A DNA stretch of 6,192 nt, from the IMG/VR virus record IMGVR_UViG_2534681649_000007; one strand, written 5' to 3'. Positions 1 to 6,192 of this stretch are shown here, piece by piece. Source of the stretch: a virus. Lineage: Duplodnaviria; Heunggongvirae; Uroviricota; Caudoviricetes. How positions within the stretch are numbered: the stretch's first letter is position 1; every line of letters begins with the position of its first letter. The notes under the pieces were generated by a model that ran no database searches, was not told the DNA's origin, and worked only from the letters and a program-made list of their open reading frames with translations. The translations under genes were made by a program, and so were the position numbers.

Positions 1-131
1 ACCCAGTTGTAATAACCGATCCTGGATACACCAAATACCTGACACATCGCTTCAATGGGAAATTGTTGTCGCCATTGTTCGATTAACGCGTATTTTTCAG
101 CGACTCCTGTGCAAAATACGCTGTTGCTTTT
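1..131 (-). CDS. IS600-like transposase OrfB frame, N-terminal portion (partial, continues beyond window)
   Basis: Open frame on minus strand from the TAA at 132-134 down to window start. Same frame as the orfB part of the fused ORF in copy 2 (SNSVFCTGVAEKYALIEQW...). One nonsynonymous difference versus copy 2 (Ile versus Ser, codon at 18-20). Confidence 0.6.
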
Positions 132-384
132 TTAATATATCTCGCTCAAGGCGAGCTTCATTTAACGCCTTACGCAGTTGCAGAATTTCAGATTCCAGTT
201 CAGCCACCGTGCGGGAACCAGGAGTACCGAGCCCTTTTCTGGCGGCGGTAACCCATTGTCCTAAAGTGCCTTCAGGAAGGGATAATCGGGAAGCGCCTTC
301 ACTGATCGAAAGTTGATTTTCAAGAACCGTTCTGACAGCTTCGGCTTTGAACTCTTTAGAGTAACGTTGGTTTTTTCTGCTCAT
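97..384 (-). CDS. IS600-like OrfA (HTH transposase regulatory protein), 95 aa with non-canonical C-terminus
   Basis: ATG at 384, stop TGA at 97-99. Translation MSRKNQRYSKEFKAEAVRTVLENQLSISEGASRLSL... is a typical IS3-family OrfA. The A-run at 127-132 on plus (6 T) is one short of the length that would give the conserved OrfA end KKATAYFAQESLKNTR, so the product here ends KKQQRILHRSR. Confidence 0.8.
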   Translation of the reverse strand: MSRKNQRYSKEFKAEAVRTVLENQLSISEGASRLSLPEGTLGQWVTAARKGLGTPGSRTVAELESEILQLRKALNEARLERDILKKQQRILHRSR

Positions 385-445
385 TATTAGCTCCTTCTGA
401 TGCCATTCTATTTCAGGAAGGAGTGTCCGTTAAACTCAGGCTACC

Positions 446-637
446 TCAATCTTCTCTTATTTTGAAATACAGATTCGTCAGATAAGTCAGAAGCCCCAGA
501 AGCAGACTTCCCAGCACACCAATCGCAGCCCACTGTGATGGACTGACCTGATCCAACCACTGCAAAAACCAGTAGCCGGCACTGCCGGCGGAGGTGCCGT
601 AGGCAATGCCCGTTGAAATTTTGTCCATGGATTTCAT
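446..637 (-). CDS. Phage class II holin (phage 21 S / Stx-phage S-like), C-terminal tail truncated by IS insertion
   Basis: 63-aa product [28 protein letters not shown]...[11 protein letters not shown] with the dual-start motif M-K-S-M and two hydrophobic segments. Strong SD GGAGGTGA (RC of 641-648) upstream of ATG at 635-637. The stop codon TGA (446-448) is the terminal TGA of the IS600-like inverted repeat, so the native charged C-terminal tail is replaced. Confidence 0.8.
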
Positions 638-797
638 AGCCTCACCTCCGCAAATAACGGATGGCGTAGTTTTACACTGAGAAATGAAAGGGATTTGAAA
701 AGAAAAAAACGCAAAAGCGGGCGAAACGATATATACAGTAAGGAAAGCACTCTATCCAACAAACCACCCACAGTTAATCGGAATAAAAGCAGAGTGC

Positions 798-870
798 TTA
801 TGAATGATCGCACGCCCGAAGGTTAGTATTTCTGCACAGCAATTTTGCAAAAAAAGGCGATCATTCATAA
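798..870. repeat. 14-bp perfect inverted repeat (TTATGAATGATCGC / GCGATCATTCATAA) with 45-nt spacer, in the tRNA-holin intergenic region
   Basis: Arms at 798-811 and 857-870 are exact reverse complements. Read directly from the sequence. Confidence 0.6.
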
Positions 871-877
871 CTTAAAC

Positions 878-923
878 GTCTTTCAGTCACTCCGGGATTT
901 CCCATCATCGCAGACTGAAAGAC
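878..923 (-). repeat. 11-bp inverted repeat (GTCTTTCAGTC / GACTGAAAGAC) immediately 3' of the tRNA cluster; possible processing or terminator hairpin
   Basis: Arms at 878-888 and 913-923 with a 24-nt loop containing the palindrome GGGAAATCCC. Lies 7 nt downstream of the tRNA-Gly 3' end on the minus strand. No strong U-run follows, so terminator function is uncertain. Confidence 0.3.
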
Positions 924-929
924 TCTGAC

Positions 930-1004
<75 letters not shown>

Positions 1005-1007
1005 ATA

Positions 1008-1083
<76 letters not shown>

Positions 1084-1085
1084 GC

Positions 1086-1162
1086 TGGCCCACCACCGAG
1101 GACTCGAACCTCGCACCGTCAACTTAGAAGGTTGATGCTCTATCCGGATGAGCTAGTGGTGG
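1086..1162 (-). tRNA. tRNA-Arg (anticodon UCU; decodes rare AGA/AGG)
   Basis: Minus-strand sequence CCACCACTAGCTCATCCGGATAGAGCATCAACCTTCTAAGTTGACGGTGCGAGGTTCGAGTCCTCGGTGGTGGGCCA. Acceptor CCACCAC/GTGGTGG with unusual C1:G72, anticodon stem TCAAC/GTTGA, loop CTTCTAA, T-arm CGAGG-TTCGAGT-CCTCG, encoded CCA. Confidence 0.8.
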
Positions 1163-1163
1163 T

Positions 1164-1240
1164 TGGTGGCCCTTGCTGGACTTGAACCAGCGACCTGGCG
1201 ATTATGAGTCGCTCGCTCTGACCAACTGAGCTAAAGGGCC
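1164..1240 (-). tRNA. tRNA with CAT anticodon, ileX-like (likely tRNA-Ile2 lysidine type reading AUA; elongator Met not excluded)
   Basis: Minus-strand sequence GGCCCTTTAGCTCAGTTGGTCAGAGCGAGCGACTCATAATCGCCAGGTCGCTGGTTCAAGTCCAGCAAGGGCCACCA. Anticodon loop CTCATAA. Acceptor and T-arm closely resemble E. coli ileX as recalled. Confidence 0.8.
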
Positions 1241-1249
1241 GGAGGCAGA

Positions 1250-1278
1250 ATAATAACCATATGTCATCACATCTGCAA
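1250..1278 (-). promoter_or_regulatory. Candidate sigma70 promoter for the tRNA cluster
   Basis: On minus strand: -35 TTGCAG (1278-1273), 17-nt spacer, -10 TATTAT (1255-1250), ending about 10 nt upstream of the first tRNA 5' end at 1240. Pattern match only. Confidence 0.3.
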
Positions 1279-1328
1279 ACTCATCTGACCACCAGCACGT
1301 TTAACGTCCTGTGCCGTTTTTCAGGTAT

Positions 1329-1352
1329 AAAAAAACCCGCATAAAGCGGGCT
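1329..1352 (-). terminator. Rho-independent terminator-like hairpin (candidate lambdoid tR'-type late terminator)
   Basis: All-GC 5-bp stem CCCGC (1336-1340) / GCGGG (1346-1350) with loop ATAAA. On the minus strand it is followed by UUUUUUU (RC of A-run 1329-1335). Lies between the IS911 end and the tRNA promoter. Confidence 0.5.
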
Positions 1353-1377
1353 CTTTCAAATGCCCATGTGAAGTGGT

Positions 1378-1521
1378 CAACAAAAACTGGCCACCGAGTT
1401 AGAGTTTTTCCAGTATCGATTTTCCGATTCGTTTGGGGGTAACCCACCGTTATATTCGTGCGGTCTTAGTGCGCTGTAATATCCAACGATATAGTCCGTT
1501 ATGGCGTGAGCTGCCTCGCTG
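1378..1521 (-). pseudogene. IS911 orfB 3' fragment, separated from the rest of orfB by the IS1 insertion
   Basis: Minus-strand translation continues the OrfB frame: ...AHAITDYIVGYYSALRPHEYNGGLPPNESENRYWKNSNSVASFC, stop TGA at 1378-1380 inside the IRR. Confidence 0.8.
1513..1521. repeat. 9-bp target-site duplication (GCCTCGCTG), left copy, for IS1
   Basis: Identical 9-mer immediately flanks both IS1 ends (1513-1521 and 2290-2298). Confidence 0.9.
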
Positions 1522-1770
1522 GGTAATGCTGCCAACTTACTGATTTAGTGTATGATGGTGATTTTAAGGTGCTTGCGTGGCTTCCATTTCCATCAGATGT
1601 CCTTCCTGCTCCGCTACTGAAGGCGTGGTGCGTAACGGCAAAAGCACTGCCGGACATCAGCGCTATCTCTGCTCTCATTGCCGTAAAACATGGCAACTAC
1701 AGTTCACTTACACTGCCTCTCAGCCCGGTACGCACCAGAAAATCATTGATATGGCCATGAATGGCGTCGG

Positions 1771-3352
<1,582 letters not shown>

Positions 3353-3396
3353 ATCACCTCTGTTCAGGTGGCCAAATTCAGTGTGCCACTTCAGGT

Positions 3397-3459
3397 GCCG
3401 AACCTTCCTCCGGATATAATCTGTGATTCCCCAATCAACAGAACCAGAGGAGGTTCGGC
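3397..3459. repeat. Imperfect inverted repeat (GCCGAACCTTCCTCC ... GGAGGAGGTTCGGC) 3 bp from the IS911 end, just downstream of the ydaT-like gene
   Basis: 8-bp perfect core GCCGAACC/GGTTCGGC extended by imperfect pairing, about 30-nt loop. No U-run on either strand, so not an obvious intrinsic terminator. Confidence 0.4.
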
Positions 3460-3466
3460 ATAAACA

Positions 3467-3889
3467 TCAATGCACAACGACAGAATCGTCGGACGACCCA
3501 CCACCGCTGAAATGTGCTTTCCGGTAAACGGCCTGAACTGCGTCATCATGCGCATCAATTGCCGTACTCAACGCTTCCTGCGCCGCCAGTAATGCACGGC
3601 GTTCCAGGGTATCGAAGATACAGAGTCGGTGACGCAGCTCACGCGGAAGAATTGCCAGAACCGCAGGGATCAGTTTCTGAATTTTCTCCCTTTGCGCTTT
3701 CGTTTCACCTTTCAACCAACGGTGATAGATATTCTGCTGATTGTTCCAGTCCTTGCCTGGTACCAGAGGCAATTCGCCGCCCCCCTGCCGCAGATATTCT
3801 TCAGTAATTGCGTTAGCGACCCACGCCTGCCCTTTTTCGGCTGCCAGGGCTAACAGCACTGATTCGATGTGCTCATGCCTGATTTTCAT
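3467..3889 (-). CDS. YdaT-like prophage protein (occupies the cII position downstream of the cro-like gene)
   Basis: 140-aa ORF MKIRHEHIESVLLALAAEKGQAWVANAITEEYLRQGGGELPLVPGKDWNNQQNIYHRWLKGETKAQREKIQKLIPAVL.... SD GAAGGTGA upstream of the ATG at 3887-3889. The start overlaps the dicC-like 3' end by 17 nt. Family assignment is from recalled similarity to Rac/CP-933P YdaT. Confidence 0.55.
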   Translation of the reverse strand: MKIRHEHIESVLLALAAEKGQAWVANAITEEYLRQGGGELPLVPGKDWNNQQNIYHRWLKGETKAQREKIQKLIPAVLAILPRELRHRLCIFDTLERRALLAAQEALSTAIDAHDDAVQAVYRKAHFSGGGSSDDSVVVH

Positions 3890-4100
3890 GAATCACCTTC
3901 CCAGGTCGTTTTGCCTTACGATATTCGTCATAAACTTTGGGGTCGTACTGAAGTTCCCCGCCAGATGCCTCTTGCAGGCGCATCGCGCGGCCTTCAGGAA
4001 CCAGTTCCCCCCATGCAGCAATGCTTGCCAGCCTAACTCCTGCGGCATTGGCAAGCTTTGTTTTGCTGCCAAAAAACGCTATAGCATCAATTTTCAACAT
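3873..4100 (-). CDS. dicC: DicC-like Cro-type small regulator
   Basis: 75-aa product MLKIDAIAFFGSKTKLANAAGVRLASIAAWGELVPEGRAMRLQEASGGELQYDPKVYDEYRKAKRPGKVIHENQA closely resembles E. coli Qin DicC as recalled. SD AAGGAG 7 nt upstream. Divergent from the dicA-like gene. Confidence 0.8.
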   Translation of the reverse strand: MLKIDAIAFFGSKTKLANAAGVRLASIAAWGELVPEGRAMRLQEASGGELQYDPKVYDEYRKAKRPGKVIHENQA

Positions 4101-4176
4101 ATCGAGCTCCTTAGATTTTCCTAAGGAAACTAGATCGTAGAGAAACCTAAGTCAAGAAAGATTAGAATTCCCTAAT
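4101..4176. promoter_or_regulatory. Divergent promoter/operator region between dicC-like and dicA-like genes with repeated TTAG-N6-CTAA palindromes
   Basis: TTAGATTTTCCTAA (4111-4124) and TTAGAATTCCCTAA (4162-4175, ending 1 nt before the dicA ATG), plus related CCTAAG/CTTAGG half-site-like motifs at 4120-4126 and 4145-4150. Layout is analogous to cI/cro operators. Confidence 0.5.
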
Positions 4177-4584
4177 ATGAAAAACGAAACCTTCGGTGCT
4201 CGCCTCTTACATAGGCGTAAAAAATTAAAACTGTCTCAGGCCGCATTAGGTAAGCTGGTCAAAGTGGCTCACGTAACAATTTCTCAATGGGAAAGAGATG
4301 AAACACAGCCGGCGGGGAAAAGATTATTCGCACTGAGCCAAGCGCTTCAGTGCTCACCGACTTGGCTTCTTTTTGGGGATGAAGATAAACAACCAGGCGA
4401 ACCGATCCCGGATAATCAGCCAGCCATTCTGACAGAAGATCAAAAAGAGTTACTTCAACTGTTCGACGCACTGCCTGAGTCAGAGCAAAAGGCCCTGTTG
4501 TCAGAGATGCGTGCTCGAGTTGAAAATTTCAACAAACTTTTTGAAGAACTACTCAAAGCTCGCAAAAGAAGCGCAAACAAATAA
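4177..4584 (+). CDS. dicA: DicA-like HTH (XRE-family) repressor
   Basis: 135-aa product MKNETFGARLLHRRKKLKLSQAALGKLVKVAHVTISQWERDETQPAGKRLFALSQALQCSPTWLLFGDEDKQP...PESEQKALLSEMRARVENFNKLFEELLKARKRS. Shares the HTH_3 N-terminal domain and the conserved C-terminal blocks of E. coli DicA as recalled. Confidence 0.85.
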   Translation: MKNETFGARLLHRRKKLKLSQAALGKLVKVAHVTISQWERDETQPAGKRLFALSQALQCSPTWLLFGDEDKQPGEPIPDNQPAILTEDQKELLQLFDALPESEQKALLSEMRARVENFNKLFEELLKARKRSANK

Positions 4585-4649
4585 TCCCCTTTTTTCTCCA
4601 CACCCTGTAATAAAAAGCACAAACTTTCAAACACTTGTGTTTTTTACAT

Positions 4650-4728
4650 CAAAAAAACTTAGGTTTTTATACATAAAATCTTGACTCCACGTCTTAGGTT
4701 ATTCTAAATTTCATTCATCAAGACACCG
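4650..4728 (+). promoter_or_regulatory. Candidate promoter/operator region upstream of the ydfA-like gene
   Basis: Possible -35 TTGACT (4673-4678) and -10 TAAATT (4697-4702) with 18-nt spacer. Two CTTAGGTT motifs (4650-4657, 4685-4692) resemble the half-sites in the dicA-dicC operator region. Small palindrome ACACCGCACGGTGT at 4715-4728. A weak hairpin plus T-run at about 4610-4640 may terminate dicA. Confidence 0.3.
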
Positions 4729-4786
4729 CACGGTGTTCTCAGCAAACAGTTCCACTACCCCGGCGTTAAGGGGAAATGAGGTCAGC

Positions 4787-4939
4787 ATGGATACTATCGA
4801 TCTTGGCAACAACGAATCCCTAGTGTGTGGCGTGTTTCCCAATCAGGACGGCACATTCACCGCCATGACGTATACCAAAAGCAAAACGTTTAAAACCGAA
4901 GCTGGCGCACGTCGCTGGCTTGCCAAAAATACCAGCTAA
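4787..4939 (+). CDS. ydfA: YdfA/YdaF-like small prophage protein (DUF-type, function unknown)
   Basis: 50-aa product MDTIDLGNNESLVCGVFPNQDGTFTAMTYTKSKTFKTEAGARRWLAKNTS from the ATG at 4787, preceded by GAGGT. It follows the dicA-like gene as ydfA does in Qin. The longer tracked ORF start at 4733 has no RBS. Confidence 0.7.
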   Translation: MDTIDLGNNESLVCGVFPNQDGTFTAMTYTKSKTFKTEAGARRWLAKNTS

Positions 4940-4983
4940 TCCATTTATTGGATTAATTCAATATTCTCGCTGTAGAGGTATAG

Positions 4984-6149
4984 TGAGGTGTACTGGCAAT
5001 AGCGGACACTACCATTTGTTCTTTTTTTAAGCAGCCATCTGATGATATTTTTCCCTGAAGGCTGCCGGGGAGATATTCCCCAGACGAGAGTGACGACGCT
5101 GACGATTGTAGAAAATCTCAATGTATTCCCGTATTACTGAGATGGCTTCATCCCGGTTATTAAAACGATAGTGGCTCAGGCTCTCATTTTTCAGCGTTCC
5201 CCAGAAGCTTTCCATCGGAGCGTTGTCGTAACAGTGACCTTTACGCGACATTGATGTTTTCAGACCAGACTGCTCCTGTATGACCCGGTAATCGTATGCG
5301 CAGTACTGTGAACCTCGATCAGAGTGGTGGATTAGCCCGGCAGGTGGGCGCTGGCTCCTGAGCGCCATAAACAGGGCTTTACCTGTCAGCTCTTTTGTCA
5401 TGCGCTCTCCCATGGCGTAGCCGACAATTTCGCACGTATAAACATCTTTGATGCCAGCGAGGTACAACCATCCCTCCTGTGTGGCAACATACGTCAGGTC
5501 CGCCACCCAGACCTGATTTGGTGCTGTAGGAGCGAACGTCTGGTTCAGCAGATTTGGCGCAACTGGCAGATTGTGGTTCGGGTTCGTAGTCGCTCTGAAC
5601 TTGCGTTTCTGCTTACAGCGTAGCCTTAGCTCCTTACGAAGACGTGCCAGTCGGTCACGACCAACGATGATGCCATTCTCTGCCAGCTCCGTCTGGAGCC
5701 GCCGGGTTCCATATGTTTCGCGAGTGCGGATATGTGCCACCTTAATCTCCAGTTTTAGCCGCTCATCACTTTGTTTTCTGTCTGAGGGTTCATGCTGTAC
5801 CCAGTTGTAATAACCGCTCCTGGATACACCAAATACCTGACACATCGCTTCAATGGGAAATTGTTGTCGCCATTGTTCGATTAACGCGTATTTTTCAGCG
5901 ACTCCTGTGCAAAATACGCTGTTGCTTTTTTTTAATATATCTCGCTCAAGGCGAGCTTCATTTAACGCCTTACGCAGTTGCAGAATTTCAGATTCCAGTT
6001 CAGCCACCGTGCGGGAACCAGGAGTACCGAGCCCTTTTCTGGCGGCGGTAACCCATTGTCCTAAAGTGCCTTCAGGAAGGGATAATCGGGAAGCGCCTTC
6101 ACTGATCGAAAGTTGATTTTCAAGAACCGTTCTGACAGCTTCGGCTTTG
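4984..6149 (-). mobile_element. IS600-like IS3-family element, copy 2, missing its IRL-proximal ~99 bp (replaced by IS1 end)
   Basis: IRR TGAGGTGTACTGGCAATAGCGGACACTACC at 4984. Sequence is collinear with copy 1 up to 6149, where the IS1 terminus begins. Same minus orientation as copy 1. Confidence 0.85.
5027..6149 (-). CDS. IS600-like orfA-orfB in-frame fusion (OrfAB transposase-like), N-terminally truncated by IS1
   Basis: A single ORF spans both frames because the A-tract has 8 A (T-run 5926-5933 on plus) instead of 6 in copy 1. Translation ...ERDILKK-SNSVFCTGVAEKYALIEQW... with DDE-type motifs VWVADLTY, HSDRGSQY, DNAPMESFW. The only in-frame start is a TTG inside the IS1 terminus (6161-6163). 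Confidence 0.7.
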
Positions 6150-6192
6150 GGTAATGCTGCCAACTTACTGATAGTGTTTTATGTTCAGATAA
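6150..6192 (-). mobile_element. IS1 copy 2, terminal fragment at window edge (insB-proximal end), inverted relative to IS1 copy 1
   Basis: GGTAATGCTGCCAACTTACTGATAGTGTTTTATGTTCAGATAA is the reverse complement of an IS1 right end including the insB 3' codons (...LNIKHYQ stop). The element continues beyond the window. Confidence 0.85.

Follow-up and report, generated by a model that had tools for sequence, protein, structure and literature searches.

When insertion sequences (IS) have truncated the operons on both sides of a prophage control region, what is the circuit that remains between them, and why has it been kept? The question arises at positions 3467–4939 of a 6192-bp stretch of viral DNA (IMG/VR record IMGVR_UViG_2534681649_000007; the whole stretch is referred to below as the window), where four genes, ydaT, dicC, dicA and ydfA, lie between an IS911 copy interrupted by IS1 and a copy of IS600 (Table 1). 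We conclude that these genes are very probably the immunity (lysis/lysogeny) region of a decayed lambdoid prophage in a chromosome of the Shigella boydii type, combining DicA/DicC regulators with a Rac-type ydaT. The module has the hallmarks of such a region: its repressor genes diverge around a three-part operator, a leftward-type promoter has a second operator set, and the Cro analogue is followed by a CII analogue. The identities of the genes, the positions and conservation of the motifs, and the IS junctions are established.

Positions 1–6149 match locus L007 on the chromosome of S. boydii ATCC 8700 (CP026731.1; strain name from PMC9430107) at 99.9%, all IS elements included, and close copies are found on other Shigella chromosomes, such as that of S. 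boydii 600657 (CP049281). The window is a prophage remnant riddled with IS elements, and its lambdoid context is supported by a P21-type holin gene, four tRNA genes and the integration of the prophage beside ybhA/mod in relatives.

All four genes scored above the curated cutoffs of the families proposed for them in the original prediction, and no unrelated family was assigned; the predicted gene coordinates, gene overlap, intergenic length and palindrome positions were equally correct on re-check. The dicA product matched NCBIfam DicA (NF007257/PRK09706) over residues 1–135 of 135 with 237.3 bits (cutoff 101), and is 62% identical to K-12 DicA, likewise a protein of 135 aa (PMC10448788), and 97.8% identical to DicA of the PPompW prophages. 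Its Pfam matches are to helix-turn-helix (HTH) families only, spanning residues 6–72 (HTH_3 on residues 13–64), with no peptidase match in Pfam at E ≤ 0.01, so that the protein is without an S24 self-cleavage domain. The divergently transcribed dicC lies across a 76-bp intergenic region (4101–4176); its product matched NCBIfam DicC (158.3 bits, cutoff 130) and Pfam P22_Cro (PF14549; 49.7 bits, cutoff 30.2) and is 75% identical to K-12 DicC. The gene overlaps ydaT by 17 nt (3873–3889). YdfA matched Pfam DUF1391 (102.7 bits, cutoff 27) and is 90% identical both to K-12 YdfA and to Rac YdaF.

YdaT is 96.4% identical over 140 aa to YdaT of the K-12 Rac prophage. It matched Pfam YdaT_toxin (PF06254; 44.4 bits, cutoff 21) and PHROG 163, a CII-like transcriptional activator (E=1e-36), and its full length (residues 1–140) aligned with PDB entries 3c4r (E=1e-6) and 8bt1 (E=9e-6). 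In Rac YdaT, mutants have demonstrated that H56 and R57 of the recognition helix are needed for DNA binding and L107 and A110 of helix 6 for oligomerisation, and W58 was mutated as well (PMC11879457); the window protein retains all five residues at those positions. The original prediction described YdaT as a CII analogue in CP-933P, which is accurate (PMC9986795), and the family likeness holds; the two proteins are only ~30% alike, however, and the window allele is of the Rac type.

The exact motif TTAG-N6-CTAA occurs three times in the 6192 bp, each time within the module, against an expected 0.07 copies, and none of 200 shuffled sequences reached three. The two palindromes predicted earlier in the dicC–dicA intergenic region (4111–4124 and 4162–4175, the second abutting the dicA start) are indeed there; O2 between them, the palindrome at 4694–4707 and the YdaT box at 3880–3895 had been overlooked. 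The window palindromes share their core with the K-12 operator Oc, TTGTTAGTCATAACTAACAA (PMC3441716), and occupy the same positions as in Qin. On a multicopy plasmid Oc titrates DicA, it confers DicA-dependent repression in vivo, and a single CTAA>CTCA change inactivates it and abolishes DicA binding (PMC3441716). The Oc equivalent O1 (core TTAGATTTTCCTAA) has perfect arms of 7 bp, lies 52 nt from the dicA ATG as does Oc in K-12, follows directly on the inferred −10 of dicC and contains the dicC Shine-Dalgarno sequence (AAGGAG). O2 (GTAGAGAAACCTAA, one mismatch), the Om equivalent, falls within the spacer of the inferred dicC promoter; with centre-to-centre spacings of 26 and 25 bp along O1, O2 and O3, it makes the divergent region, as read from its sequence, a lambda-like three-part operator. 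A site in the O2 position lies 26 nt from the ATG in Escherichia coli FDAARGOS_944 and in PPompW too, and 24 nt from it in a Klebsiella phage. On the minus strand the order is TTGACT, 17 nt holding O2, TAGTTT, O1 and the dicC ATG, which superimposes on the positionally identical K-12 arrangement (TTGACT, 17 nt, TATCTT, then Oc).

The Oa equivalent O3 (TTAGAATTCCCTAA) ends 1 nt before the dicA ATG. Because it takes the last 14 of the 15 bp before the start codon there is no room for a Shine-Dalgarno sequence, and no purine-rich one was found before the ATG. O3 contains TAGAAT (4164–4169) seven nt upstream of the ATG; from this spacing and the missing room for a Shine-Dalgarno sequence we suspect that the dicA message is leaderless, with TAGAAT as a possible −10, by analogy with lambda cI transcribed from PRM. 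Downstream of dicA, the AT-rich 12-bp hairpin followed by a run of T at 4611–4646 folds with −9.6 kcal/mol (z = −3.8; 0 of 200 shuffles folded as well) and is likely, judging by its sequence, the dicA terminator. This hairpin was overlooked by a G+C-based terminator scan.

A comparable arrangement is found before ydfA. The recurrence of CTTAGG there (4658–4663 and 4693–4698), noted in the original prediction, is real, and the second copy is the left half of a full palindrome, TTAGGTTATTCTAA, which overlaps the spacer and −10 of a PL-like promoter equivalent to K-12 dicBp. In a promoter scan in which −35/−10 matches were scored out of 12 with a threshold of 9/12, this promoter reached 9. An imperfect site, TTAGGTTTTTATAC, with only its left half preserved, stands 35 nt upstream of the palindrome; the two sites of K-12 dicBp are spaced 35 nt likewise, and the K-12 promoter has the same architecture (TTGACC ... 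TTAGTCATGGCTAATCT, with the operator over the −10). DicA represses K-12 dicBp 22-fold (PMC10448788). The ydfA leader and gene start (4716–4800) are 96% identical to K-12 Qin, and the promoter and operator just upstream have diverged. A structured leader or nutL-like element at 4712–4795 was considered and rejected as a structured RNA, its fold being no better than that of shuffles (z = 0.10) in a stretch 96% conserved with K-12.

We compared the operators across eight immunity regions: those of the window, K-12 Qin, E. coli FDAARGOS_944, phage Rac of strain 442/2, PPompW, PhiR42_1, Klebsiella phage ST405-OXA48phi1.2 and mEp460. Seven of the eight have a perfect palindrome 50–52 nt from the dicA ATG, and the same seven have a second one ending at the ATG or no more than 2 nt from it (with a 1-nt overlap in the Klebsiella phage), so that the ATG-proximal site is kept in all TTAG-type alleles. 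The middle site, 24–26 nt from the ATG, is confined to four window-type alleles and is absent from K-12 Qin, PhiR42_1 and Rac 442/2. This layout is kept although DicA identity falls to 62%. The flanks of the operators vary: TCC..GGA marks the alleles of the window, PPompW and the Klebsiella phage, TTG..CAA those of K-12 and 442/2. In mEp460, whose DicA is the most divergent (53% identical), the place is taken by TTGAG-N6-CTCAA. Since the positions are conserved and the flanks co-vary symmetrically, the palindromes read as operators and their variants as putative variants of immunity specificity.

The same comparison bears on the earlier view that DicA/DicC together with an overlapping YdaT-family gene form a special combination. 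This view did not hold up: the arrangement is standard and present in all seven other loci, the overlap of dicC with the cII-like gene is 17 nt in eight of eight (K-12 dicC/ydfX among them), and it is already described in PMC11879457, which identifies YdfX, encoded in the dicC operon, as the YdaT homologue of Qin. GenBank record MN652886 ("Escherichia phage Rac", strain 442/2) is likewise annotated ydaT/dicC/dicA.

The cognate inverted repeat of the YdaT family, (A/T)TGATT-N6-AATCAA, has its counterpart where the cro-like gene meets ydaT, in the form of the box TGATT-N6-AATCA at 3880–3895. On the coding strand it reads GTGATTCATGAAAATCAG and differs from the footprinted Rac box, ATGATTCATGAAAATCAA, in the outermost base on each side; in Rac, binding of YdaT there switches on a reverse promoter and so increases repressor synthesis (PMC11879457). 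DNA homology to Rac runs from 3895 to the ydaT stop, and that of most other E. coli dicC regions to the window begins at 3880. These two limits place the joint at which the DicA/DicC module meets the Rac-type ydaT module within the YdaT box, which on the sequence comparison looks like ordinary lambdoid mosaicism.

All binding and regulatory steps of the switch are proposed here by homology with Qin, Rac and lambda. A DicA dimer would occupy the strong palindrome O1 and probably O2 as well. Between them, the two sites extend over the spacer and start region of the leftward PR-like promoter and over its Shine-Dalgarno sequence, and DicA bound to them would turn dicC-ydaT off. DicA binding probably also stimulates the weak promoter of dicA itself, as has been reported for K-12 (PMC3441716), and on the palindrome over the PL-like −10 (4694–4707) DicA would silence ydfA and anything downstream of it. 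O3 is a likely site for the shut-off of dicA by DicC, the Cro analogue, or by excess DicA; overexpressed DicC represses dicA (cited in PMC10448788). YdaT would bind the box on its own start codon and may raise repressor synthesis from a reverse promoter in the cro-like gene, as in Rac. Because DicA is a short HTH repressor without a self-cleavage domain, it is probably governed by an antirepressor rather than by RecA, and inactivation by an antirepressor is described for Qin DicA (PMC10448788). With both early operons truncated (by IS911::IS1 73 bp after ydaT and by IS600 44 bp after ydfA), a self-contained repressor circuit would be left, which in cis would control dicC, ydaT and ydfA only.

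Several observations weigh against this reading. K-12 DicA bound Oc only, and neither Om nor Oa, in vivo (PMC3441716), which makes occupancy of O2 and O3 by DicA uncertain. The original prediction took the start-abutting palindrome as a sign of DicA autoregulation; the site stands, and autoregulation through it is plausible rather than established, given the K-12 result at Oa (PMC3441716), and O3 may instead serve DicC. The −10 of dicC (TAGTTT) is weak, leaving its promoter under the scan threshold, and no dicA promoter reached the threshold either. A reverse PRE-like promoter was not identified inside dicC: on the plus strand between 3896 and 4100 nothing scored ≥9/12, and by eye there are only 7/12 candidates. 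Activator-dependent promoters are expected to be weak, so their absence from a promoter scan decides nothing. The DNA of dicC is, moreover, unrelated to Rac ydaS, in which the PRE-like promoter (PracR4) lies. Finally, four of the nine close Shigella copies carry a disrupted dicC, and the full switch is thus dispensable in that host.

Among characterised systems, Qin dicA-dicC of E. coli K-12 (the work of Bejar and Bouche; PMC3441716, PMC10448788) is one of the nearest. It has the same gene order (a cII-like gene, dicC, then dicA and ydfA on the opposite strand) and the same 17-nt dicC overlap, with TTAG-N6-CTAA cores at about 52 and 1–2 nt from the dicA ATG, a −35 TTGACT and a −10 abutting the strong operator at 17 nt, and, before ydfA, a second promoter whose −10 is overlaid by an operator, with a half-site 35 nt farther upstream. 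In contrast to Qin, the window has a DicA only 62% and a DicC only 75% identical, and operator flanks of TCC/GGA instead of TTG/CAA, so that immunity specificity may differ; it lacks ydfB, ydfC, dicF, dicB and ydfD at the locus, and the window-type prophage sits beside ybhA/mod rather than at the Qin site. The cII-like genes differ too, the window carrying a full-length Rac-type ydaT where Qin has the truncated, unrelated allele ydfX. With 38% identity over only 29 aa, YdfX was rejected as the counterpart of the window YdaT; it is a different allele of the same family.

Rac racR-ydaS-ydaT of K-12 (PMC11879457) shares with the window the near-identical YdaT, the box on its start codon, a YdaF 90% identical to YdfA and a lambda-like layout; unlike Rac, where RacR and YdaS hold these places, the window has DicA and DicC, with no detectable similarity between the two sets, and no counterpart of ydaS, the gene in which the reverse promoter PracR4 lies. 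The paaR2/ydaS/ydaT region of CP-933P in E. coli O157:H7 (PMC8630535, PMC9986795; PDB 8bt1) likewise places a YdaT-family CII analogue after a Cro analogue, with a box of the type TTGATT-N6-AATCAA, like that of the window, but its YdaT is only ~30% alike (E = 9e-6, full length), its repressor is PaaR2, and it has a parDE-type toxin-antitoxin pair. Identical or near-identical modules occur in sequenced strains, namely S. boydii ATCC 8700, the PPompW prophages, "Escherichia phage Rac" of strain 442/2 and E. coli FDAARGOS_944 and 943. FDAARGOS_944 has the same four genes at 97.9% DNA identity and identical DicA and DicC; unlike the window, it keeps the replication genes and a full left arm (Rha, YdaE, RecE, Gam, xis, int).

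Control of dicBF by DicA, stated in the original prediction, is correct for Qin (PMC10448788), and the IS600-like insertion 44 bp after ydfA was also confirmed, beginning at 4984. The proposal that IS600 had replaced dicF and dicB failed. Comparison of L007 with the IS-free locus L004 (S. boydii 600657) gave a 1264-bp insertion with a 3-bp TAG duplication, and these junctions are those of a simple insertion, which rules out a replacement or deletion event. The insertion is clean in the 99.9% identical ATCC 8700, and the IS-free allele has no dicB; there, a Rha/ASH-type gene comes no more than 421 bp after ydfA. DicB, YdfB, YdfC and YdfD gave no tblastn match in the window or within 10 kb in 10 relatives, and of the operon only ydfA is shared. 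For DicF (Rfam RF00039) there was no gathering-score match in the window, L001, L004, L007 or L028. The module was accordingly not assigned to the Qin dicBF operon type (ydfABC-dicF-dicB-ydfDE), with no DicF at gathering score and no DicB downstream of ydfA. IS600 cuts the PL-like promoter off from the downstream genes, in a lineage that was without dicB before the insertion.

What follows ydfA beyond the insertion looks, from its sequence, like an antirepressor-type module in the style of P1 or Gifsy rather than dicB cell-division genes. RNA matches lie at 8290–8763 of L004 (minus strand; equivalent to 7023–7211 in L007), isrK and C4 overlapping the 5′ part of the called Rha/ASH gene (scores in Table 1), and there is a sub-threshold STnc100-like match too. 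This antirepressor-type module may be the natural inducer of the window's DicA.

On the other side, IS911 (with IS1) ends 73 bp downstream of ydaT in place of replication genes, and the replication and late-regulation genes seen in FDAARGOS_944 are lost there. In 503 E. coli genomes these 73 bp (3394–3466) form the normal spacer that separates ydaT from a gene for an HTH replication initiator, which rules them out as an IS remnant. The spacer adjoins the IS911 end and holds an imperfect inverted repeat (CCGAACCT.. / ..AGGTTCGG).

We also compared nine Shigella copies, 99.3–99.9% identical over 3394–4983. The sample is small and was retrieved by an exact YdaT match, so that ydaT is invariant in it by construction. 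Across the nine, dicA has no variable site in 408 bp and O1–O3 are almost unchanged. Intact in the window itself, dicC is inactivated in four copies, by Q51stop (G>A at 3950) in L004, L005 and L008 and by a +1 frameshift (T insertion at 4054) in L010. The 30-bp core of the ydfA promoter and operator (4683–4712) has 10–12 variable positions, against a handful in the other ~1450 bp. Apparently independent changes fall in or next to the −10 and the right half of the operator (4707 A>G; 4708 A>T and A>G; 4711 T>C; 4712 C>T), and the −35 is altered as well (TTGACT>TTAACC). The loci compared for this hot spot are L003–L010 and L018–L027. Recurrent selection on the ydfA promoter/operator in Shigella is an unlikely cause, though lineages could be repeatedly tuning or silencing a leaky, harmful early operon while keeping the repressor, a pattern that would fit retention of dicA through YdaT toxicity. 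Alternatively, the hot spot could stem from patchy gene conversion by paralogous DicA-type prophages, as is suggested by the coincidence of some promoter changes with other alleles.

One tentative explanation for the retention of dicA is a form of addiction in which loss of DicA would de-repress dicC-ydaT and with it a growth-inhibitory Rac-type YdaT, mirroring the essentiality of RacR in K-12. The near identity of the window YdaT with that of Rac favours it: silencing of racR up-regulates ydaS-ydaT with toxic effect (PMC5700377, PMC5700373), and YdaT expression perturbs host operons (PMC11879457). It is further consistent with an invariant dicA beside a dicC that is repeatedly inactivated, since dicC stands upstream of ydaT and overlaps it translationally, and its inactivation could disarm the operon. 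The argument is wholly one of analogy, however, and the invariance of ydaT is an artefact of exact-protein sampling.

It is also conceivable, if somewhat doubtful, that the module is a neutral relic, left over in a dead prophage without a selected role and too recent to have decayed. Destruction of both flanking operons by IS911::IS1 and IS600, the broken dicC alleles and the many substitutions in the ydfA promoter among close copies are all what such a relic would leave behind. The absence of variation in dicA and the near constancy of O1–O3 speak against it, in a small comparison that is suggestive and not a formal selection test. The identical DicA protein is, moreover, listed in the public assembly collection under 10028 index blocks.

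An unlikely alternative, put forward in the original prediction, is that the retained repressor acts in trans, in superinfection immunity towards phages that share its operators or in the control of a dicB-type operon elsewhere in the genome. PPompW-type prophages of enterohaemorrhagic E. coli (EHEC) speak for it: they differ from the window in carrying another cII-like allele and a dicB-like cell-division inhibitor gene downstream, and they have the 97.8% identical DicA and the same O1/O2/O3 sequences. Cross-regulation is possible in E. coli genomes, in which the number of DicA-type places has a median of two and reaches eight. The searches described above, however, recovered neither dicB, ydfB, ydfC and ydfD nor a gathering-score DicF in the window or within 10 kb in any relative.

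That dicC and ydaT form a toxin/antitoxin pair is highly improbable: the Pfam names YdaS_toxin and YdaT_toxin, the PGAP label "toxin YdaT family protein" and the overexpression toxicity reported for Rac (PMC5700377) point that way, but YdaT is a DNA-binding protein of the POU/HTH type that forms tetramers, has footprinted sites and acts as a CII analogue (PMC9986795, PMC8630535, PMC11879457), its box is present at 3880–3895, the toxin label has been disputed on genetic context (PMC5917428), and the DicC-like protein is above the P22_Cro cutoff and below that of YdaS_toxin (20.4 vs 30 bits). We did not place the pair among type II toxin-antitoxin systems, since the YdaS_toxin match is sub-cutoff and both proteins have been reclassified in the literature as transcription factors (PMC11879457, PMC9986795); published structures and footprints have already largely refuted the toxin-antitoxin reading.

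The rest of the window consists of prophage and IS sequence. The holin gene and the four tRNA genes (Gly-TCC, Thr-TGT, Arg-TCT and one with a CAT anticodon) are the remains of the prophage late region; the CAT tRNA is called Met by ARAGORN and tRNA-Ile in a near-identical E. coli record. The IS600 copies at 1–448 and 4984–6149 are in direct orientation and bracket a 4.5-kb remnant containing the holin gene, the tRNAs, IS911::IS1 and the immunity module; recombination between the two copies could delete or move this segment. An IS1 end at 6150 further cuts the right-hand IS600 and is absent from L003, L006, L007 and L009.

Table 1. Features of the window and, in the last three rows, RNA matches at the IS-free locus L004 of S. 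boydii 600657.
Feature	Position	Strand	Basis or remark
IS600 copy, end part	1–448		
P21-type holin (S gene)	446–637	−	Pfam
Four tRNA genes	930–1240	−	
IS911 interrupted by IS1 (1522–2289)	1367–3393	−	PGAP names IS911, IS1A
73-bp spacer	3394–3466		
Four-gene immunity module	3467–4939		
ydaT, 140 aa	3467–3889	−	CII-analogue transcription factor, Rac allele
dicC-like Cro analogue, 75 aa	3873–4100	−	NCBIfam DicC (NF007282)
YdaT box TGATT-N6-AATCA	3880–3895		ydaT ATG (3889–3887) in spacer; sole match in window
O1 (Oc equivalent), extended TCCTTAG-N6-CTAAGGA	4108–4127		core 4111–4124
Putative PR-like promoter of dicC-ydaT	−35 TTGACT 4155–4150; −10 TAGTTT 4132–4127	−	17-nt spacer; read from sequence
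O2 (Om equivalent)	4137–4150		one mismatch; within spacer of putative dicC promoter
O3 (Oa equivalent)	4162–4175		1 nt before dicA ATG
dicA-like CI analogue, 135 aa	4177–4584	+	NCBIfam DicA (NF007257/PRK09706)
Candidate dicA terminator	4611–4646	+	AT-rich 12-bp hairpin, then T run
Imperfect upstream operator	4659–4672		left half-site only
PL-like (dicBp-equivalent) promoter	−35 TTGACT 4681–4686; −10 TAAATT 4705–4710	+	scan 9 of 12
Perfect operator	4694–4707		over promoter spacer and −10
ydfA (DUF1391), 50 aa	4787–4939	+	Pfam DUF1391; ATG at 4787, stop at 4939; first gene of PL-like operon
Gap between ydfA stop and IS600	4940–4983		44 bp
IS600, second copy	4984–6149	−	PGAP name IS3-like element IS600; IS1 end from 6150
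DicF-like element	L004 8713–8763, outside window		28.6 bits vs Rfam gathering score 48; below
isrK	L004, outside window		68.5 bits vs gathering score 50; above
C4 antisense RNA	L004, outside window		78.6 bits vs gathering score 45; above

Overall, the locus carries little weight as a discovery: it is a textbook lambdoid switch whose parts have been characterised in Qin and Rac, and its architecture has already been described for Qin (PMC10448788). The biology is that of a lambda-type bistable switch of a well-described kind, and public genomes commonly contain identical copies of it. The window serves as an annotation example, in which the label "toxin YdaT" is better replaced by CII-like regulator, and it illustrates module shuffling with a joint exactly at the YdaT box as well as the trimming of a Shigella prophage by IS elements down to its repressor circuit. 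If the variation at the ydfA promoter were confirmed at population scale, it would provide a small, testable case of selection on the control region of a domesticated prophage.

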